A stretch of 40,007 bases of DNA from an uncultured Candidatus Saccharibacteria bacterium (GCA_964581805.1 CAZOPO010000002.1:1-40007), one strand, 5' to 3'; positions 297 to 40,007 are shown, counted from the stretch's first letter. Numbers and translations are program-made. Notes: generated from the letters alone by a model not told the origin.

Positions 297-2168
297 TTAT
301 CTAATTTCAACACTCTTTTCAATAATCTTTCTCCATGCTGGGCCTGAAGCTGATTCTCCGACTCCTCCTACCATAGAACTATTATCATTATTTCCTGACC
401 AAACTCCTACGCAAGTTTTAGTAGTGCATCCGACAATCCATCCGTCTCCATTCTTTTGAGTGGTTCCCGTTTTAACAAAAACTTTGTAATTATCAAATCT
501 TAAATTAGAATAGTATCCGAATATGGGAGCTCGAGCATTGTTATCTGATAAAACATCAGTTATCATTTCGCAGACATAAGTTTCTAAAACTTTTCTAGGA
601 GTATTGTTATTCTCATATATTATATTTCCCGAGGCATCTTCTATCTTTAAAATTGCTGAAGGAGGGATACGATATCCTCCGTTAGCAAAAACTCCATAAG
701 CAGAAACCATATCAAGTAAATACACTTCTCCTCCTCCTAAAACTAAAGAGAGTCCATAGTAAGAAGGATCTTTAGTCAAAGTAGTAATTCCCATTTTCTG
801 AGCTAAAGAAATACTATCATTTAGTCCGGCTAAATCTTTTAAAACCTTAACAGCAGGAATATTAAGAGATTGAGCAAGAGAATCTCTTAAAGTAACAGGA
901 CCTCTAAATTTGCCATCATAGTTTTGAGGGACATATTCTTCTCCTCCCCAAAATCCAAAACTAGTTAATTCATCGATAACAATAGTTTGGTCATTAAATC
1001 CTTTATTAAAAGCTTCTGCATAAACAAAAGGTTTAAAAGATGATCCTGGCTGTCTCTTTCCTTGAGTGGCGACATTAAAATCAGGAACAAACTTACAAGT
1101 TCTGGAAGGGTCACAATTTTCTGGGAAAGATTCTCCTAAAGGATCGGCTGATCCTACCATAGAGAGTATTTCTCCTGTTTGATGATCAATTGCTACTAAA
1201 GCAGAATTGTAGGCCTTAAAACGAGAAATATTGGTATTAACACTATCTTTAATAGCTTCTTCAGAAGCCTTTTGTAATTCCCAATCAAGAGTAGTATAAA
1301 TTCTTAATCCTTTAGTTTCTAGAAATGTTGGTCCATAAAGTTCTTCAATTTGTTCTTTAACGTAGTTTACAAAATGTATCGCCTGAGTTTTAGGGCGACT
1401 GTTAAAAGTTATCTCTATATTTTGAGCAATATCTCTTTCTTCTGAAGAAATATAGTTTTCTTCCATCATTCTTCTTAAGACGTAATTTTTTCTGTTAAGT
1501 AAGTCATCAACATGGCTTCCGTAAGGGGAGTAATAGCTCGGTGATTGAATAGTTGCCGCTAAAAGAGCAGCTTCTTCAATAGTTAAGTCTTTAGCAGATT
1601 TTTGAAAATATGTTTGAGAAGCTTCTTCTACTCCATAAATATTTACTCCAAAAGGCACTTGATTCAAATACCATTCTATTATTTGTTCTTTAGAATATTT
1701 TCTGTCTAATTCTATAGAAAGAACCATTTCTTTTAATTTTCTTTCAATACTTTTAGTGGGAGTTAAAAAAGTGCTTCTTATTAATTGTTGAGTGATAGTT
1801 GATCCTCCAGGCACATTAAGACTTTGAGTGGTGATACTTAATTTAATAGCTCTTAAGACCCCAGTAATATCAATTCCTGGGTGAATGTAGAAATTAGAAT
1901 CTTCTGTTGCGACAACAGCGTGAACCATATTCTCAGATATTTCTGCTAAAGGAACATAAGTTCTTTTTTCCTCTCCGTAGATATTAGATAAAATAACTTC
2001 TCCACTTCGATCGTAAATTTTAGTAGAAAGATTTAATTGGGCCTCTGTAAAAACTTCAGGACGAGGAAGGTCTCTCATATAATAGAAAAAAAGACTAATT
2101 CCTCCAATTATTCCTAAAATAACAAGCCAAAAAATGATTTTAATTAATTTTTTAATAAGTTTATTCAT
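297..2168 (-). CDS. Class A penicillin-binding protein (bifunctional glycosyltransferase/transpeptidase, PBP1A-like)
   Basis: N-terminal TM helix. GT51 motifs are EDSNFYIHPGID and GGSTITQQL. Transpeptidase motifs are SSFKPFVY (SxxK) and KTGTT. Confidence 0.9.
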   Translation of the reverse strand: MNKLIKKLIKIIFWLVILGIIGGISLFFYYMRDLPRPEVFTEAQLNLSTKIYDRSGEVILSNIYGEEKRTYVPLAEISENMVHAVVATEDSNFYIHPGIDITGVLRAIKLSITTQSLNVPGGSTITQQLIRSTFLTPTKSIERKLKEMVLSIELDRKYSKEQIIEWYLNQVPFGVNIYGVEEASQTYFQKSAKDLTIEEAALLAATIQSPSYYSPYGSHVDDLLNRKNYVLRRMMEENYISSEERDIAQNIEITFNSRPKTQAIHFVNYVKEQIEELYGPTFLETKGLRIYTTLDWELQKASEEAIKDSVNTNISRFKAYNSALVAIDHQTGEILSMVGSADPLGESFPENCDPSRTCKFVPDFNVATQGKRQPGSSFKPFVYAEAFNKGFNDQTIVIDELTSFGFWGGEEYVPQNYDGKFRGPVTLRDSLAQSLNIPAVKVLKDLAGLNDSISLAQKMGITTLTKDPSYYGLSLVLGGGEVYLLDMVSAYGVFANGGYRIPPSAILKIEDASGNIIYENNNTPRKVLETYVCEMITDVLSDNNARAPIFGYYSNLRFDNYKVFVKTGTTQKNGDGWIVGCTTKTCVGVWSGNNDNSSMVGGVGESASGPAWRKIIEKSVEIR

Positions 2169-3448: not shown

Positions 3449-4243
3449 ATGAATAAAGAAAAACTTATCATAATATCAATTTTTATAATTATTTCTTTTA
3501 CGTTATTTTTATTAGGATATTCTATTAAATTTTTAACAATTTTTGCCGAAGAAAATTCTCCTAACCCAGGACATACTATCTCGGAAATAGAAAACGGTGA
3601 TCTTTTAGCAACTAAAGACTATGTTGATGAAAAATTTAGAAATATGTCGAGAAATTTTACTGAAGGAGTTGCTTTGAAAACAACTGGAACTGTTCCTGTT
3701 TGTGATATAACGAATTTAGGATTGATGTGGTATTTAGAGGGATCATCAGGAGAACAAGATTTAGTTATTATGTGTCAAAAAATGCAAAATGGTGATTATC
3801 GATACAGAGATTTAATTACTGGTAATGTTGCTAATTGGTGGGGATCTGGTTTGTCAGATTACGGAAAACATAATCAGGCAGACTGTGTTGCTGCAGGAGG
3901 AATAGTGGTTAGTGGAGATAATGAAGAAAAGCAATGTAAATTTACCCGTTCAACTTGTCCTTCTGGATGGGATTTTTATTCTCCTCATTATACTGCTCAA
4001 AATGATTGTACGGCGACTATTACAGGAGGACAAGGAACCTCTGCTTCTTGTTCTGCTTTAGGACATACTTTTTCTAAATTAGGGACTTCAGCCACAGTAG
4101 AAGTTTGTTATTCTCCTATGGGATCAAATCCAAAAATAGCTAAATGGTGTTGTGGCGTTGAATGTCATAGTAATTTTGATTATTGCTATTCTTCTCATAG
4201 TTATAGTTGTTCAGGTTTAATAACAGAAATTGGTTGTTATTAG
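3449..4243 (+). CDS. Secreted or membrane-anchored Cys-rich protein, family member 1 (14 Cys)
   Basis: N-terminal hydrophobic helix ending ..IFA, then NPGHTISEI and DLLATKDYVDEKF. Core DCVAAGG...QCKF...CPSGW. C-terminus ITEIGCY*. It is a paralog of 23240..24064 and 39078..39758. Confidence 0.8.
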   Translation: MNKEKLIIISIFIIISFTLFLLGYSIKFLTIFAEENSPNPGHTISEIENGDLLATKDYVDEKFRNMSRNFTEGVALKTTGTVPVCDITNLGLMWYLEGSSGEQDLVIMCQKMQNGDYRYRDLITGNVANWWGSGLSDYGKHNQADCVAAGGIVVSGDNEEKQCKFTRSTCPSGWDFYSPHYTAQNDCTATITGGQGTSASCSALGHTFSKLGTSATVEVCYSPMGSNPKIAKWCCGVECHSNFDYCYSSHSYSCSGLITEIGCY

Positions 4244-4256
4244 TCATTAATAGTTT

Positions 4257-4284
4257 ACAAAAAAAGAGCTTCTAGCTCTTTTTT
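4257..4284. terminator. Bidirectional intrinsic terminator between family member 1 and ruvC
   Basis: AAAAGAGC-TTCTA-GCTCTTTT hairpin with an A-tract upstream and a T-tract downstream. A near-identical element occurs at 23049..23072. Confidence 0.7.
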
Positions 4285-22808: not shown

Positions 22809-23062
22809 TGAAAGTAAAAATTTTAACACCGGAAAAAGTAATATTTGAAGGGGAAGCAGAGGAAATTAATATCCCAACTACATCGGGACATATTTCTGTT
22901 TTAAACAGTCATACACCTTTAGTCTCCGTTATTTCTCCTGGCGAGATAGTATTAAAAACAAAAGAAGGTAAAAGAATTTTTACTAATCAAAATGGAGTTG
23001 TTCAGACGATAAACAGTCAAACAAGTCTTCTTCTTACAGTTTGCAAAGAAAAGAGCCTCTAG
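22808..23062 (+). CDS. atpC: F0F1 ATP synthase subunit epsilon, beta-sandwich domain only (84 aa)
   Basis: Operon position and an N-terminal epsilon pattern (KILTPEKVIFEGEAEEINIPTTSGHISVL). No C-terminal helical hairpin is present. Confidence 0.75.
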
Positions 23063-23072
23063 CTCTTTTTTT
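23049..23072 (+). terminator. Intrinsic terminator of the atp operon
   Basis: AAAAGAGC-CTCTA-GCTCTTTT followed by a T-run; it contains the atpC stop codon. Near-identical to the hairpin at 4257..4284. Confidence 0.7.
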
Positions 23073-23074
23073 GT

Positions 23075-23103
23075 TTGACATTTCTTCTTTTATTTAAGAT
23101 AAT
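23075..23103 (+). promoter_or_regulatory. Family-associated promoter (copy 2)
   Basis: TTGACA (23075-23080), a 17 nt spacer, GATAAT (23098-23103). The about 30-nt block is nearly identical to 39021..39049. Confidence 0.6.
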
Positions 23104-23110
23104 ACAATTA

Positions 23111-23161
23111 ATGAAAACAGAAACAAAAAATCTTCTCTCTCTCTCTCTCTCTAATATAATA
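23111..23161 (+). promoter_or_regulatory. Candidate leaderless leader mini-ORF (MKTETKNLLSLSLSLI*) containing the (CT)9 tract
   Basis: ATG lies 7 nt after the -10 box. The ORF runs through the dinucleotide repeat and stops at TAA 23159-23161. Confidence 0.25.
23135..23152. repeat. (CT)9 dinucleotide microsatellite
   Basis: Eighteen nt of perfect CT repeat, the only such tract noticed in the window, upstream of family member 2. Confidence 0.95.
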
Positions 23162-23188
23162 TCTTTAGAAGATTTTAGTTTGAAAAAT

Positions 23189-23211
23189 AAGGAAGCTTTG
23201 GCTTCTTTTTT
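23189..23211 (+). terminator. Terminator/attenuator-like hairpin between the copy-2 promoter and the copy-2 ATG
   Basis: AAGGAAGC-TTTG-GCTTCTTT followed by TTT, located 29 nt upstream of ATG 23240. Confidence 0.5.
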
Positions 23212-23239
23212 GTTGTAATAAAATAATAAGTAAAAATAT

Positions 23240-24064
23240 ATGAATAAAAAAAGATTCTACATTATCTCAAGCACTTTGCTTCTAATCGGACTCTTTGCCG
23301 GAGTAGTTCAATACGTTGGCACGTTCGACGCCCTTTACGCTGCTGCTGTTAATCCAGGACACTCATGGAGTCAAATGGAATGTACAGATACTTTTTGTAT
23401 AGACACAAATAATAAGAGAATAGGGATAGGAACAATTTTACCATTAGAGGCTTTAGAAATTAATGGAAATATTAAACTAGGAGGAGAAAATCCTACTTAT
23501 ACAATTTCTAATATTAAAGATCCAACTAATGCTTCTGATCTTGCTACTAAAAACTATATTGATCGTGAAATTGCAAAAGTAGGAGCAATGGTTTCGGGCA
23601 CTTTACCTTTAATAAATAGTGCGCATACTCAGAAAGATTGTGTTGATGCAGGAGGAGTTCCCGTCGATGGATCAACACAATTAAAACAATGTAAATTCGC
23701 TGCTTCAGCTTGTCCAACAGGATGGACAGCAAATGAAAATTGGACAACTACAGTGAGTAGTTTGGTTTATATTCAATCTCAATGTATTAGTTACGATGGT
23801 GATGATAATTGTATCGCATACGGCCCAATGGACCGTTATACTTGTTCAACTCCTGAACATTCTTTTAGTAATAAAGCTGCTGAATGGGCAAGATCCGATG
23901 GAGACATTACTCTTGTTTCGCCTTGTTATGCTTTTACCCATGGTAAATGTTATGATTCAGAAATTGGTTATGTTGGAACATTTGGTTTTATTCCTTCCGA
24001 ACCGAAATATTGTTCAAGGTCTGCTACTGGCTATGCAAAAATAGTGGAGATTGGTTGTTATTAA
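23240..24064 (+). CDS. Secreted or membrane-anchored Cys-rich protein, family member 2 (12 Cys) with tail-fibre-like motifs
   Basis: N-terminal hydrophobic helix ..LYA, then NPGHSWSQMEC. Also RIGIGTILPLEALEINGNIKL and DLATKNYIDREI. Core DCVDAGG...QCKF...CPTGW. C-terminus IVEIGCY*. Confidence 0.8.
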   Translation: MNKKRFYIISSTLLLIGLFAGVVQYVGTFDALYAAAVNPGHSWSQMECTDTFCIDTNNKRIGIGTILPLEALEINGNIKLGGENPTYTISNIKDPTNASDLATKNYIDREIAKVGAMVSGTLPLINSAHTQKDCVDAGGVPVDGSTQLKQCKFAASACPTGWTANENWTTTVSSLVYIQSQCISYDGDDNCIAYGPMDRYTCSTPEHSFSNKAAEWARSDGDITLVSPCYAFTHGKCYDSEIGYVGTFGFIPSEPKYCSRSATGYAKIVEIGCY

Positions 24065-24067
24065 AAT

Positions 24068-24096
24068 TAGACAATTTAGAATTTTTCTAGTAAAAT
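24068..24096 (+). promoter_or_regulatory. Candidate promoter of the NIF3-like gene (leaderless arrangement)
   Basis: TAGACA (24068-24073), a 17 nt spacer, TAAAAT (24091-24096), then 6 nt to ATG 24103. Confidence 0.45.
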
Positions 24097-24102
24097 ACTT
24101 TT

Positions 24103-25041
24103 ATGAAAACAAAAGAGATTTTTGATTTAGCAATAAAGATGGGAATAGGTGTTGATTTTAGAGGTGAATTAGGCGTTGCTAAGTTTTTAGATAGGAAAAA
24201 AAAGAAATATGATTCTTTGAAGAATAAAGAAGATTTTGATGAAGAAGCTCTAGTTAATCCTTATCTAGACTCAAGAATACATAATATATCGGAAGATAAA
24301 GAAATTAAAAAAGTATTAGCAGGAATAGATATTGATACAGCTGAATTATTATTAGCAAAATCTTTAGGTGATATTGATTTAGCAATAGCTCATCATCCTG
24401 TAGGAAGAGGACTTTCTAGTTTAGATGATGTAATGAGCTTACAAGCTGATGTCTATAATTATTATGGTGTACCAATTAATATTGCCGAAGGACTTAATCA
24501 TCCTAGAATTGCTGAAGTTTCAAGAGGAGTTACAGCCTCTAATTTTCAGAAGCCTGTTGATGCAGCAAGATTATTAGGAGTTAATTATATTAATCTTCAT
24601 ACTCCTATAGATAATTTAGTGGCCAGGTTTTTAAAGGATTTAGTTGAATCAAAAAATCCAGAAACAGTTGAAGAATTAGTCTCTCTTTTAAAGGAGGTTC
24701 CTGAATACAAAGAAGCAATTAAAATTGGGTCTGGTCCAAGAGCAATTACTGGAAAGATGGATAATAGATGTGGTAAAATTGCTATTACAGAAATTACTGG
24801 TGGAACAGAAGGTTCTCCTAAATTATATGAAAAAATGGCTCAAGCAGGAATTGGAACAGTTGTTTCTATGCATGCCTCTGAAGAACATAAAAAAAGAGCC
24901 GAAGAAGCTAATATCAATGTTGTTATTGCTGGACATATTTCTTCAGATTCTTTAGGAATGAACTTATTTTTAGATGAATTAGAAAAGAAAGGAATAGAAA
25001 TTGTTCCTTTTAGTGGACTAATTAGAATTAAAAGGTTTTAA
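24103..25041 (+). CDS. NIF3-family (YbgI-like) metal-binding protein, tentative
   Basis: DLAIAHHP motif, a late GHISSD motif, and a length compatible with NIF3. This is a recollection-level match only. Confidence 0.45.
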   Translation: MKTKEIFDLAIKMGIGVDFRGELGVAKFLDRKKKKYDSLKNKEDFDEEALVNPYLDSRIHNISEDKEIKKVLAGIDIDTAELLLAKSLGDIDLAIAHHPVGRGLSSLDDVMSLQADVYNYYGVPINIAEGLNHPRIAEVSRGVTASNFQKPVDAARLLGVNYINLHTPIDNLVARFLKDLVESKNPETVEELVSLLKEVPEYKEAIKIGSGPRAITGKMDNRCGKIAITEITGGTEGSPKLYEKMAQAGIGTVVSMHASEEHKKRAEEANINVVIAGHISSDSLGMNLFLDELEKKGIEIVPFSGLIRIKRF

Positions 25042-36049: not shown

Positions 36050-36565
36050 TTATTTTTTTAAAATAGTCACTGATAGACCTTTTGGTTCTTTTTTAATTTC
36101 TTTTTCTACTTTTATTTCTAATTTGCTTCCTAGTATTTCAATAAATTTCTTAATTTTTTGGACTCCTACTTCTGATAATTGTTTTTCTCTTCCCTTTAAT
36201 CGTAATTCAACATTAATCTTATCACCTTTATTTAAAAACTTTTCAGCAGCAGATACTCTCGTATTAATATCATTGTCAGAAATGTTAAAGGATAATCTAA
36301 TACTTTTTGTTTCTCCGTGTCTACTTCCAGCAATATTCTTCTTTTCTTTCTTTTGAAGGGAATAAAGATGCTTACCGTAATTTCCAATTTTACATACCGG
36401 GGGATTAGCCTTATCAGTAACCATTATTAAGTCAAGTTCTTTTTCTTTGGCTATGTCTAATGCTTCTGATAGTTTAAAGACTCCTAATTGTTGTCCTTCT
36501 TCTCCGACTAATCTTACACTTTCCGCTTTTATTTGATTGTTGTATTGTGGTTTATTCAATTTAAT
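36050..36565 (-). CDS. infC: Translation initiation factor IF-3 (probable AUU start)
   Basis: IKAESVRLVGEEGQQLGV...PPVCKIGNYGK is the IF-3 pattern. The track start at 36598 (TTG) lies inside the tmRNA T-arm. ATT at 36565-36563 gives a normal-length N-terminus, and AUU starts are classical for infC. TTG at 36559 is an alternative start. Confidence 0.8.
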   Translation of the reverse strand: MKLNKPQYNNQIKAESVRLVGEEGQQLGVFKLSEALDIAKEKELDLIMVTDKANPPVCKIGNYGKHLYSLQKKEKKNIAGSRHGETKSIRLSFNISDNDINTRVSAAEKFLNKGDKINVELRLKGREKQLSEVGVQKIKKFIEILGSKLEIKVEKEIKKEPKGLSVTILKK

Positions 36566-36567
36566 TG

Positions 36568-36922
36568 TGGAGGTGGCGAGTAATGAGCCCGCGTCCAAAA
36601 ATTATTCCATAATATATCTACAAGTTTATTCCAATTTGTTTTTACAAGCTTTAAGACTATAAATTGGAAAAAATGTCTTAAACTTGAATTCAGTTTTTTT
36701 AAGCAAATATCCTCTGAATTAATGAATATTTGCCGTTCTCGCGATGTTTGTGCCCTTTACTACCCAGCGAGAATCGGTAGGAGGACATGCACTAAGCGTA
36801 TGCTAATGCAGGTTCTTCAAATAAGTTGTTTACACTTAAATTTTTTCTCCCAGTTTTACGAGGTTTGAGATGGCTCGACTTGCATACTATTTTCAAATCC
36901 TTGTCAAAGCGAATTCACCCCC
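36568..36922 (-). ncRNA. ssrA: tmRNA (SsrA), 355 nt, CCA not encoded
   Basis: The 5' end reads GGGGGUGAAUUCGCUUUGACAAGGAU. The 3' end reads GGACGCGGGCUCAUUACUCGCCACCUCCA. The acceptor stem is GGGGGUG/CACCUCC with a G3-U pair. The candidate tag frame GUA AAC AAC UUA UUU GAA GAA CCU GCA UUA GCA UAC GCU UAG (36833..36792) encodes (A)VNNLFEEPALAYA*. Confidence 0.9.
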
Positions 36923-37457: not shown

Positions 37458-39017
37458 ATGAATATTAAAGAAGAAATTAAAAATAGTATTAAGGCCTCCT
37501 TAAATCTTATTAATTATAATGATGATTTTAATATTAAAATAAGCAGATCACAAAAATCTTCTTTTGGTGATTATTCAACAAGCATCGCTATGGAAATAGG
37601 AAGAGAAAGAAAAGAAAATCCGATGGAAATAGCAGAAAAGATACAAAAAAATATTAAAGGAGAATATTTTGAGAAAATAGAAGTTGCTTTTCCTGGATTT
37701 ATAAATTTCTATATTTCTGCGGAATACTTTTTTAAAGAAATTAATCAAATTAAGAAAGATTTTGGTCAATTTCCTAAAAAGAAAAAGAAAGTTCAAGTTG
37801 AATTTATATCTGCTAACCCAACAGGTCCCTTGACTGTGGGCAATGGTAGAGGAGGTCCTTTTGGAGATGTTTTAGCTAATGTTTTAAAAAAATACGGCTA
37901 TGAAGTTGAAAAGGCTTATTATATTAATGATCACGGAAAGCAGATATTATCTTTAGGTCATTCTGTTTTGAAAGATTCTGAAGCTAAATATACGGGAGAA
38001 TATATTGATCAATTGAATAAGAAAATTAAAGAAAAAGATCCTTATAAAGCAGGAAAGAAGGCTTCTCAATTTATTCTTAAAAATATAATTAGGAAGACGG
38101 TAGAGAAAATGAATATTCATTATAATCAATGGTTTTCGGAAAGTTCTTTATACAAAAGTGGAGAAGTTGATAATGTTTTAAGTCTTTTAAGGAGTGAAGG
38201 TCTTACTTATGAACAAGAAGGAGCAGAATGGTTTATGTCTACCGCTTTAGGTGACGAGAGAGATAGAGTAATTGTAAAATCAGATGGAGAAAAGACGTAT
38301 CTATTAGGAGATATTGCTTATCATCGAAACAAGTTTGAAAAGAAGAAGTTTGATAAAGTTATTAATATTTGGGGAGCAGATCATTATGGAGATGTTCCTG
38401 GTCTTATCGCAGGAGTAGAAGCAATGGGGCATATGAATAAATTAGAAATTGTTTTGCTTCAATTTGTTACTGTTTTGAAAGATGGTAAAACTTTAAGGAT
38501 GTCAAAAAGGCTAGGAACCTCAATTGCTATGGATGATTTATTAGATGAGATTTCATCAGATGTTATTAGATTCTTTTTTTTACAAAAATCAGCTGATACT
38601 CATTTAAATTTTAATTTAGATTTAGCTAAAGAACAGTCAGAAAAGAATCCGGTATTTTATGTTCAATATGCCTATGCAAGAATTTCTAGCATTTTAAGGA
38701 AATCAAAAAGATTTTTGAAAGGGAATAAAATTAAAAATGTTAAATTGTTAAATCACAAAAGAGAAATAGAATTAATGAAACAAATTTTAAGACTTCCTGA
38801 AGTAATTGAAGAAACAGCTAATGATTATGAAGTTCATCGAATTCCTCAGTATGCAATAGATTTGGCTACTTCTTTTCATAAATTCTACACAGAGTGTCAA
38901 GTTTTGAATGATGATAAAGATTTAAAAGAAGCAAGATTAAGTCTAGTCTATCTATCAAAAGTTGCTCTTAAAAACACTTTAGACTTGATGGGTATTAGTT
39001 CTCCTGAGAAGATGTAA
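37458..39017 (+). CDS. argS: Arginyl-tRNA synthetase
   Basis: SANPTGPLTVGNGRGG (HIGH region), MSKRLG (KMSKS-like), and a C-terminal DALR anticodon-binding region. Confidence 0.92.
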   Translation: MNIKEEIKNSIKASLNLINYNDDFNIKISRSQKSSFGDYSTSIAMEIGRERKENPMEIAEKIQKNIKGEYFEKIEVAFPGFINFYISAEYFFKEINQIKKDFGQFPKKKKKVQVEFISANPTGPLTVGNGRGGPFGDVLANVLKKYGYEVEKAYYINDHGKQILSLGHSVLKDSEAKYTGEYIDQLNKKIKEKDPYKAGKKASQFILKNIIRKTVEKMNIHYNQWFSESSLYKSGEVDNVLSLLRSEGLTYEQEGAEWFMSTALGDERDRVIVKSDGEKTYLLGDIAYHRNKFEKKKFDKVINIWGADHYGDVPGLIAGVEAMGHMNKLEIVLLQFVTVLKDGKTLRMSKRLGTSIAMDDLLDEISSDVIRFFFLQKSADTHLNFNLDLAKEQSEKNPVFYVQYAYARISSILRKSKRFLKGNKIKNVKLLNHKREIELMKQILRLPEVIEETANDYEVHRIPQYAIDLATSFHKFYTECQVLNDDKDLKEARLSLVYLSKVALKNTLDLMGISSPEKM

Positions 39018-39020
39018 TGT

Positions 39021-39049
39021 TTGACATTTCTTCTTGTATTTAAAATAAT
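39021..39049 (+). promoter_or_regulatory. Family-associated promoter (copy 3)
   Basis: TTGACA (39021-39026), a 17 nt spacer, AATAAT (39044-39049). GTTTGACATTTCTTCTTgTATTTAAaATAAT differs from the copy-2 promoter block at 2 positions. Confidence 0.55.
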
Positions 39050-39077
39050 TAAAATATATAAATAATTAAAATTAAAA

Positions 39078-39758
39078 ATGAATAAAAAAAGATTCTACAT
39101 TATTTCAAGTACCTTGCTTCTAATCGGACTATTCGCGGGAGTAGTTCAATATATTGGAGTAATTAATACTATCTATGCTGCCATTAATAATCCAGGACAC
39201 TCATGGAGTCAAATGGAATGTTCTGAGGATCTTTGTATCGATGCTACGAATCATAAAGTAATAATTAAAAACTTACAATTGAATGGCATGCTTTATGATA
39301 CGACAGGATATTCTGCTTCAGATTCTGCTTCTTTGCGCTTAACTGGAGAAGGTGTAAGATGGGACGAACCATTAACTTGGACCGGTAGTACGCATGGATT
39401 AATAGATTGTTCTAATATAGGTGGAACAGTGTTTAATACTGGTTCTGGCACAATATGTAGGATTAGCCAAGCAACTGTGCCTACGGGCTGGACACAAGCA
39501 GCAAACTGGCAAAGATATTCAATAGCTTCATGGGGTGGTGACGCTTGTGGAAGACATGTAAGCACGGCTCCTACAACTTGGAGTAACACATTAGCAATAA
39601 ATTACGGAGCAGGCTCTGTTCAGTGTACAAGTAGTTGTGGAACTTGCGCTGGTTTTGTAGGTCATTGGTGGGCGTATAATAGTTCATCGGGGCCTGTTTA
39701 TACTTTGACCACAACATCAAATCCTACTTCATATCGAGTAGAAGTAGGTGTCTATTAA
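39078..39758 (+). CDS. Secreted or membrane-anchored Cys-rich protein, family member 3 (8 Cys)
   Basis: The N-terminal 48 aa are nearly identical to member 2 (MNKKRFYIISSTLLLIGLFAGVVQY...NPGHSWSQMEC). Core DCSNIGG...ICRI...VPTGW. C-terminus RVEVGVY*. Confidence 0.8.
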   Translation: MNKKRFYIISSTLLLIGLFAGVVQYIGVINTIYAAINNPGHSWSQMECSEDLCIDATNHKVIIKNLQLNGMLYDTTGYSASDSASLRLTGEGVRWDEPLTWTGSTHGLIDCSNIGGTVFNTGSGTICRISQATVPTGWTQAANWQRYSIASWGGDACGRHVSTAPTTWSNTLAINYGAGSVQCTSSCGTCAGFVGHWWAYNSSSGPVYTLTTTSNPTSYRVEVGVY

Positions 39759-39791
39759 TTTGGATATTCTCTTAATTTTTTATTTCAAAAT

Positions 39792-39817
39792 AAGACCTAC
39801 TTTAAAAGTAGGTCTTT
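39792..39817 (+). terminator. Palindromic hairpin after family member 3
   Basis: AAGACCTACT-TTTAAA-AGTAGGTCTT is a perfect 10-bp stem followed by a short T-run. Confidence 0.5.
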
Positions 39818-39865
39818 AGTTAATAATTTATTGCCTTTAAGGTTAAAATCTGCTATTTTTAAGGT

Positions 39866-40007
39866 ATGAAAGTTGATTTTAAAAATAGGTATTTTTTCTT
39901 AAGGCACGGTAAAAATATTCATCAGACAGATTTAAAAGATATAGTCTATGGCTTTCCTGATGACAATCCTCCTTGTTCTTTAATTGAAGAAGGAATTTTG
40001 CAATCTA
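39866..40007 (+). CDS. Histidine phosphatase (phosphoglycerate-mutase-like) family protein, N-terminal part (runs off the window)
   Basis: MKVDFKNRYFFLRHGKNIHQ contains the RHG catalytic motif at the usual position. Confidence 0.6.
   Translation, partial: MKVDFKNRYFFLRHGKNIHQTDLKDIVYGFPDDNPPCSLIEEGILQS

Follow-up and report, generated by a model that had tools for sequence, protein, structure and literature searches.

Genes that agree at their ends and differ strongly in between raise the question of whether recombination or selection has given them this form. The window analysed here, a stretch of 40,007 nucleotides (nt) from an uncultured Candidatus Saccharibacteria bacterium (GCA_964581805.1 CAZOPO010000002.1:1-40007), contains three such genes, c1 (3449–4243), c2 (23240–24064) and c3 (39078–39758), all on the plus strand, as are the promoters, hairpins, upstream reading frame and gene remnant described below. 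The copies lie 16–23 kb apart, dispersed among housekeeping genes. The initial annotation described conserved ends around an unrelated interior, proposed that recombination or gene conversion homogenises the ends while the interiors are exchanged or diversify, and likened the arrangement to antigenic-variation cassettes; it missed a truncated fourth copy, c0, and a 128-nt insert between the promoter and the ATG of c2 that is absent from c3. The explanation we favour, and regard as probable, is that of a modular surface-fibre family: selection fixes an export and neck module, and homologous recombination through this module and the flanks re-assorts or replaces fast-evolving heads. On this view, c1, c2, c3 and the remnant c0 would be scattered members of one multigene family, whose products are exported surface proteins resembling tail fibres. 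In each gene a portable 5' module, made up of a sigma-70-type promoter, in some cases a 128-nt leader, a signal/anchor peptide of 37 residues and an NPGHSWSxMEC neck, would be joined to a short stalk and to one of several alternative heads: Cys-rich of the IGCY or the VGIY type, Fib_succ_major or others.

Head replacement at fixed loci

Relatives of the window genes come from a metagenome scan, which yielded 19 close loci (L003–L021) from landfill and bioreactor samples and about 25 distant ones; related loci are named L003–L051 and metagenome runs X1, X2, X3 and X5. Between argS and His_Phos_1, where the window carries c3, L018, L049 and L050 carry a Fib_succ_major gene, and their flanks are 95% (argS 3' end) and 94% (His_Phos_1) identical to those of the window. 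These three alleles stem from three samples and two assemblers, L049 and L050 being independent ENA assemblies. A third head is found at this locus in L004 and L051. The exchanged segment has its right end at 39826/39827 in all alleles; its right edge in the window is a hairpin past c3 (39792–39826), and synteny with the Fib-head and CCP-head alleles is back at 39827. A downstream flank haplotype with eight single-nucleotide polymorphisms at 39907–39964 is common to alleles with three different heads, and the c3 cassette (39018–39906) shows 0 differences across two flank haplotypes. Run X2 contains only the flank haplotype that the window lacks, yet has an identical c3 body at about half the flank depth.

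The other loci tell a similar story. Downstream of tyrS, the window has c1 and L021 a c3-like gene. The c0 locus consists in the window of a promoter (138–166; TCGACA-17 nt-GATAAT, 10/12 consensus positions, with the architecture of the c2 and c3 promoters) and a gene remnant (179–238) with an ATG at 179 and 13 leader codons (MNKKRIYIISSTF), followed by unrelated sequence and a stop. Region 158–216 is 92% identical to the 5' end of c2; the sequence past the leader is unrelated and AT-rich, and the remnant adjoins the 3' end of the PBP1A gene (297–2168, minus strand). At the same locus L012 carries a full-length Fib_succ_major-type gene, with a 3' flank 98% identical to window positions 306–496, which makes c0 a deletion remnant. 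The L012 gene itself has, within L012:528–600, a CAA-to-TAA nonsense change at leader codon 24, which makes it a second pseudogene in the family. A candidate 3' remnant of a c3-like gene at c0 was dropped, since the local alignment was no better than with shuffled sequences (p = 0.07). Members also occur side by side: in the tandem pairs at L012:380–530 and L013:500–660 one gene ends in …RVEIGIY-stop and the next starts 8–10 nt on with no promoter between them, and in L008 and L009 two members about 100–320 nt apart have a promoter between them.

These comparisons show re-assortment and whole-head replacement at fixed sites between strains. Recombination can re-assort promoter, leader and head because paralogues have no long stretch of similarity other than the 5' module, and because the housekeeping genes on either side resemble each other from strain to strain; the enzymes involved may include RuvABC, which is encoded in the window. 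One might instead suppose that differential constraint has acted without any exchange, on old duplicates whose leader is frozen by selection and whose heads drift. Non-homologous heads between identical flanks, and an identical cassette on two flank haplotypes, argue against this, and the sequence of the module itself is weighed below.

Nor do the heads look as if they had been mutated in place. The Fib_succ_major family, which has many surface paralogues with conserved cysteines, is a surface-exposed, variation-tolerant class of target for diversity-generating retroelements (DGRs; PMC5758913), and DGR mutagenesis of the lectin-like heads might be considered on that ground. We give it next to no credence: the 40-kb window contains no reverse transcriptase or template repeat and no direct repeat of head 3' ends, and the head differences are wholesale (non-homologous domains and indels) rather than substitutions limited to a variable region.

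Two further observations concern the c3 region. A contig of run X2, in which another upstream sequence (…AGTATTGGTTTTTCCTTAAT) is joined to the window sequence at 39767, just past the c3 stop, hints at a further allele with c3's terminator region. The window and L020 differ in tight clusters (6 in 46 nt at 38672–38717, 4 in 34 nt at 38954–38987 and 8 in 58 nt at 39907–39964) within otherwise identical housekeeping sequence, a pattern typical of short recombination imports between strains.

Constraint and exchange in the shared module

The similarity of c2 and c3 at their 5' ends is largely as first described. The promoter block GTTTGACATTTCTTCTT(T/G)TATTTAA(G/A)ATAAT occurs at 23073–23103 and 39019–39049 (one position from where it had been placed) and nowhere else, with 2 mismatches in 31 nt and zero chance occurrences expected. 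It reads as a near-consensus sigma-70 promoter, TTGACA-17 nt-GATAAT in c2 (23075–23103) and TTGACA-17 nt-AATAAT in c3 (39021–39049), each matching 11/12 consensus positions, the latter beginning 4 nt past the argS stop. The first 80 coding nt are 90% identical, and the 34-nt run TAATCCAGGACACTCATGGAGTCAAATGGAATGT, which encodes (N)NPGHSWSQMEC, is indeed the same at 23350–23383 and 39188–39221. Codon alignment also bears out the sharp drop in nucleotide identity, with a boundary near 39250: per 30 nt, identity runs 0.97, 0.83, 0.67, 0.67, 0.90 and 0.60, then stays at about 0.4, the chance level being 0.26.

What lies beyond the boundary is, however, not unrelated, as had been claimed. In BLASTP comparisons restricted to the bodies, c3 matches c2 at E = 6e-6 and c1 matches c2 at E = 4e-12. 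Profiles of heads of the c3 type, which end in NRVEIGIY, and of the c1/c2 type, which end in QIGCY, align by hhalign with 97.5% probability (E = 6e-12) over the scaffold H..DC..GG.V......C.F....P.GW....NW...sWsN. On this profile evidence the C-terminal domains of c1, c2 and c3 are recognizable as diverged homologues. In c3 the conserved scaffold, LTW.GS.H..DC..GG.V...G..C......P.GW.QA.NW, spans 39369–39515, and the corresponding stretch of c1 and c2 is homologous to it. The head's second half is hypervariable and has indels; a conserved terminal strand forms its end. The idea that IGCY and VGIY heads are cryptic Fib_succ_major domains found no support, hhalign giving probabilities of 20% and 0.7% against Fib-type relatives and the PF09603 model finding no match in c1, c2 or c3 at E up to 1.

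The shared 3' end has a simpler explanation than the conversion first proposed for it. The 14-nt ATTGGTTGTTATTA is found only at 4229 and 24050, where it ends c1 and c2, and it follows from a conserved terminal peptide and codon bias. The peptide (E/Q)-I-G-C-Y-stop is kept in near and distant members, and its codons vary synonymously (ATT/ATC/ATA, GGT/GGC, TGT/TGC, TAT/TAC and all three stops). Members share no similarity 3' of the stop codon. c1 and c2 just use the commonest codons for this peptide, and gene conversion need not be invoked.

Selection also accounts for most of the conservation at the 5' end. We counted nonsynonymous (pN) and synonymous (pS) differences by the Nei-Gojobori method over 15 complete members. 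In the leader (codons 1–48) pN is 0.00–0.17 with a mean pS of 0.46; in bodies of the same head type pN is 0.23–0.48 with a mean pS of 0.59. With pN typically about 0.1, as compared with 0.45 for bodies, the leader is thus kept chiefly as a peptide, under strong purifying selection, with silent sites only moderately less diverged than in the bodies, and the heads evolve fast (pN/pS about 0.7). These counts corrected an initial notion that nucleotide conservation of the leader goes well past the constraint on its peptide. Homogenisation of the ends by conversion is not borne out either: c2 and c3 have not been homogenised in this genome, because they differ at 19/35 nt in segment 76–110. The high leader pS implies that exchange is too rare to homogenise the paralogues, and that much of the mosaic look needs no recombination. 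Several points favour an account by constraint only. It explains the pN/pS contrast between leader and body and leaves the 3' match to the peptide motif, and in the first 27 codons 18 of the 26 codons for the same residue are identical, against 14.4 expected from codon usage.

The distribution of variants within the module speaks for exchange. Among 34 informative sites of the 147-nt leader, 301/561 site pairs fail the four-gamete test, and in a permutation test modelled on the pairwise homoplasy index neighbouring sites are more compatible than permuted ones (0/2000 permutations as low as observed). More than half of the informative pairs are thus incompatible, with spatial structure. Leader and body distances are incongruent. 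L017 is c2-like at 24/26 of the sites that differ between c2 and c3 up to nt 107 and c3-like from nt 145, and its body is the orthologue of that of c3 (87% nt identity); this switch between nt 107 and 145 places a breakpoint at the 34-nt run. Between c3 and L021 pS is 0.16 in the leader and 0.60, which is saturated, in the body. The neck haplotypes HSWSQ and HLWSE are each found with all three main head types, and the 34-nt run is where leader and body haplotypes re-assort. Taken together, these patterns make recombination in the family clear, and we judge constraint without exchange distinctly improbable. The suggestion of recombination and exchange therefore stands in so far as the 5' module recombines and heads are exchanged; its other half does not, since what preserves the 5' end is, for the most part, purifying selection acting on its peptide.

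The 34-nt run deserves separate mention. It has 17 haplotypes in 20 members, and only 3/190 pairs are identical, one of them the c2–c3 pair of this genome. All 11/11 codons of the run are identical in c2 and c3, with P about 0.003 under genome codon usage, which suggests, without proving it, a short intragenomic conversion tract. Identity between two copies of one genome, and a conserved junction at the mapped breakpoint, would also suit programmed antigenic or phase variation in which silent cassettes are converted into an expression site, as in pilE/pilS or vlsE. We hold such a system to be very unlikely here, and the likeness to antigenic-variation cassettes fails on architecture. Strong promoters stand at c0, c2 and c3, and no copy, c1 included, lacks a start codon of its own, so that neither a single expressed locus nor promoterless, 5'-truncated silent donors are seen; the sole truncated copy, c0, keeps its 5' end and is not a promoterless 3' cassette. 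In assembled contigs, a single invariant unitig (13.8x) represents the c3 body in X1, and in X5 the body has 4 differences over 695 nt. The open reading frames (ORFs) of the 40-kb window include no recombinase, reverse transcriptase or transposase.

Family architecture and the leader of c2

The predicted protein begins, in c2 and c3, with MNKKRFYIISSTLLLIGLFAGVVQY, a basic n-region followed by a hydrophobic helix. After the helix come ...YAA(A/I)xNPGHSWSQMEC, a short stalk and a beta-rich, Cys-containing C-terminal domain. An AlphaFold2 model of c3 has a mean predicted local distance difference test score (pLDDT) of 81, with one helix at residues 3–37 and a C-terminal domain above 90. No Cys precedes residue 48 in c2 or c3, which leaves no lipobox. 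In distant relatives a typical AxA signal-peptidase site stands immediately before NPGHSW, and the neck motif would therefore lie at or near the mature N terminus.

On this common plan the members differ in detail. c1 is full-length and divergent, with its own leader class, an NPGHTISEIE neck, an IGCY-type Cys-rich head and a tail-fibre-like LATKDYVD motif; it starts 13 nt past tyrS, and a promoter scan upstream of it found none. c2 has leader codons 1–37, an NPGHSWSQMEC neck, a stalk with IGIGT and DLATKNYID and an IGCY-type head, and c3 a leader, the same neck, a short stalk and a VGIY-type beta-rich head. The terminator past c1 (AAAAAAGAGCTTCTAGCTCTTTTTT, 4260–4284) is nearly the same as the one before the c2 promoter (AAAGAGCCTCTAGCTCTTTTTTT, 23050–23072), and several relatives carry AAATCCGCCTTCGGGCGGTTTTTT right before the promoter instead.

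Beyond the window, a protein search with c3 returned full-length orthologues at 37–70% identity and other proteins that share only the first ~60 residues (64–87% identity) and then have different C-terminal domains, several of them PF09603 Fib_succ_major; the sister proteins P0014 and L022, for instance, match PF09603. A nearly identical leader ahead of unrelated C-terminal domains means that the family is modular, with one leader and neck and many heads. The c3 head (residues about 98–226) in turn recurs C-terminally in about 100 representative proteins of 150–1047 residues. In the distant loci only NPGHSWSEMEC and a VGIGT stalk are retained, and the C-terminal domain is Peptidase_S74 (a tail-fibre chaperone, seen only in these distant relatives), Fib_succ_major or of unknown kind; among these loci is one with a match to tail-fibre PHROGs at E = 1.7e-23. 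The c2 stalk matches PHROG tail fibres at E about 2e-3; c1 has no match in PHROGs, and c1 and c2 have no significant match in Pfam or NCBIfam. Neither this family nor the NPGHSWSxMEC neck is described in the literature searched. Because the products carry export signals, have lectin-like domains among their alternative heads and count tail fibres among their relatives, their likely role would be to vary the attachment to host or partner cell surfaces, or to evade phages for which the fibres are receptors.

Several points weigh against the reading as a modular fibre family with exchanged heads. Signal-peptide cleavage and surface exposure are predicted from the features above. The c3 head matches nothing significant in Pfam, NCBIfam or PHROGs, and a Foldseek search with the c3 model gave best values of E = 0.16 in PDB (an eCIS tail fibre) and 0.046 in BFVD, neither significant. 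The mean leader pS is high. Population-level comparison rests on Logan contigs, which are assembled and drop rare variants, and most relatives come from short metagenome contigs that may be chimeric at repeats. At the argS locus, L051 is ambiguous, its upstream flank being of another kind and its flanks mixed. Mixed flanks count among the points for an assembly artefact, in which the repeats of the 5' module would have led to chimeric joins, be it in the window or in related contigs; contigs do break at the module (L003 and L004 begin inside it), and leader depth is 10–15 times body depth. Exact unitigs in independent runs nonetheless cover the window junctions (38723–39107 in X1, for example), c2 and c3 are reproduced by L003 and L020, and three independent assemblies recovered the Fib allele at the c3 locus together with its two flanks. 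We consider an artefact extremely unlikely.

The insert that sets c2 apart from c3 recurs in the family. At least eight members, including c2, have this conserved 128-nt segment between promoter and gene; in the other members, including c3, the promoter lies 12–30 nt from the ATG. It contains an upstream ORF (23111–23218; 35 codons, MKTETKNLLSLSLS...) with its ATG 8 nt past the -10 box and its TAA 21 nt before the c2 ATG. The ORF encodes MKTETKNLL(SL)n through a (TC)n tract, in c2 a (TC)9.5 microsatellite at 23134–23152, which is the sole repeat of period <=2 in the 40-kb window and whose run length sets the frame of the ORF. Among members the run measures 13, 15, 19, 21 or 25 nt. With 13, 19 or 25 nt the ORF stops right after the repeat; with 15 and 21 nt (c2) it continues through a hairpin to the stop that lies 21 nt ahead of the main ATG. 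Runs X2 and X5 contain a form that matches c2 exactly apart from being 6 nt shorter. The terminator scan and RNA folding place the terminator-like hairpin at 23189–23214 (AAGGAAGC-TTTG-GCTTCTTT, followed by a T run). The folding energy of the whole leader is not unusual (z = -0.94), the sequences are too alike for a covariation test, and an Rfam scan of the whole window matched only the transfer-messenger RNA (tmRNA), with no match at the c2 5' leader.

These features allow a tentative proposal, which we think rather unlikely to be right, that the 128-nt leader in this subset of fibre genes is a phase-variable attenuator and the (TC)n tract a candidate slippage switch. The upstream ORF would be leaderless, starting as it does 8 nt past the -10 box. 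Where its frame stops before the hairpin, the terminator would form and the gene would be off; where it reads through the hairpin to the stop 21 nt before the main ATG, anti-termination, re-initiation or both would turn the gene on. Two side observations belong to the same segment. A second, weaker promoter-like site (TTGGCT-18 nt-AATAAT, 23198–23227) overlaps the hairpin. The insert is flanked by ATAAT on either side, and the short form could therefore arise by deletion between the 5-nt repeats.

The rest of the window is housekeeping sequence: PBP1A, TyrRS, RuvABC, YebC, a PilB-like ATPase, the ATP synthase operon, ArgRS and tmRNA. Its G+C content is 29.6%, which makes it AT-rich, and those of c1, c2 and c3 lie above this average (32.7%, 36.5% and 39.6%), which could reflect their Gly/Cys/Trp/Thr-rich composition or a foreign origin. 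The sole named relative with the same leader in the protein search is a Candidatus Pacebacteria metagenome-assembled genome. The GTDB representative genomes, among which no complete reference genome of the lineage was found, gave just two weak relatives, both Paceibacterota. The source genome looks Paceibacteria-like, that is, like an ultrasmall bacterium of the Candidate Phyla Radiation (CPR)/Patescibacteria. In the RNA-labelled run one 261-nt contig matched, which was uninformative. Among neighbouring genes, the tmRNA (36565–36922, minus strand) overlaps the 5' end of the listed IF3 ORF (36050–36598, TTG start), whose real start is probably further downstream or an unusual codon. In the landfill runs X3 and X5, the NIF3-like gene (24103–25041) starts with ~60 nt at which Logan contig depth is raised by a factor of 20 to 80; the spike spans window positions 24069–24162, and this stretch would accordingly be repeated or widely common in the community.

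Known systems and the biology of attachment

By analogy, the family resembles Mycoplasma Vlp/Vsp proteins, phage tail-fibre mosaicism and polymorphic toxins in its logic, and it lacks defining features of each. The Mycoplasma families compared are Vlp (M. hyorhinis), Vsp (M. bovis), Vsa and Vpma; in Vlp, a simple repeat near the promoter controls expression. Vlp/Vsp and the present family alike combine a conserved 5' non-coding region and signal peptide with divergent mature parts, and both occur in small-genome bacteria that depend on their surface. Unlike Vlp/Vsp, our family has no lipobox cysteine, is dispersed among housekeeping genes and not clustered, has no site-specific recombinase within the 40 kb and varies in globular domains instead of tandem repeats. 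Its (TC)n tract lies inside the upstream ORF past the -10 box and not in the promoter spacer, which holds no repeat.

Phage tail fibres and receptor-binding proteins likewise have a conserved N-terminal attachment part and C-terminal heads swapped through recombination at conserved junctions. c2 and its relatives bear stalk motifs, and the distant relatives bear Peptidase_S74 and match tail-fibre PHROGs. The present genes, by contrast, are cellular, with export leaders and among housekeeping genes, with no phage genes nearby, and c3 has no tail-fibre match beyond the weak Foldseek one. In CdiA-CT and other polymorphic toxins the conserved N-terminal part ends at the short invariant motif VENN. 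There, as here with NPGHSWSxMEC, an invariant motif is followed by unrelated C-terminal modules, and remnants of displaced copies occur; in our family, however, there is no toxin/immunity pair, the heads are lectin-like or Cys-rich binding domains and the conserved part is only about 48 residues long. With respect to Fib_succ_major (PF09603/TIGR02145), sister members bear PF09603 heads and c1, c2 and c3 themselves fall outside PF09603.

Simple-sequence contingency loci offer a parallel to the c2 leader. In Neisseria opa, CTCTT repeats lie in the region that codes for the signal peptide. Such loci and the c2 leader share a short, pyrimidine-rich repeat in the translated 5' region of a surface-protein gene, with a unit number that varies between copies and sets a frame. 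In contrast to opa, the repeat here belongs to a separate upstream ORF that a terminator-like hairpin follows, and an effect, if there is one, would therefore concern attenuation or re-initiation and not the protein's own frame.

To our knowledge, host recognition and attachment in CPR/Patescibacteria remain largely unknown, with few candidate determinants besides type IV pili. The present family offers concrete candidates for attachment: exported, fibre-like proteins whose heads are exchanged between strains at fixed loci and evolve fast, lectin-like Fib_succ_major domains included. The invariant NPGHSWSxMEC neck may serve as a simple handle to search for such proteins across the phylum. There is also a more general lesson, in that a pattern of conserved ends and a variable middle between paralogues can stem mostly from selection, and showing exchange needs synteny across strains. 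If the (TC)n upstream ORF and its hairpin are functional, they would form a switch of the contingency type, the first to be proposed for CPR/Patescibacteria; and if phase switching does go together with head swapping, an ultrasmall episymbiont would have at its disposal a repertoire of attachment fibres that is both stochastic and combinatorial. Variation of heads on a shared module at the same chromosomal site is thus a candidate handle on how ultrasmall bacteria vary the targets to which they attach.

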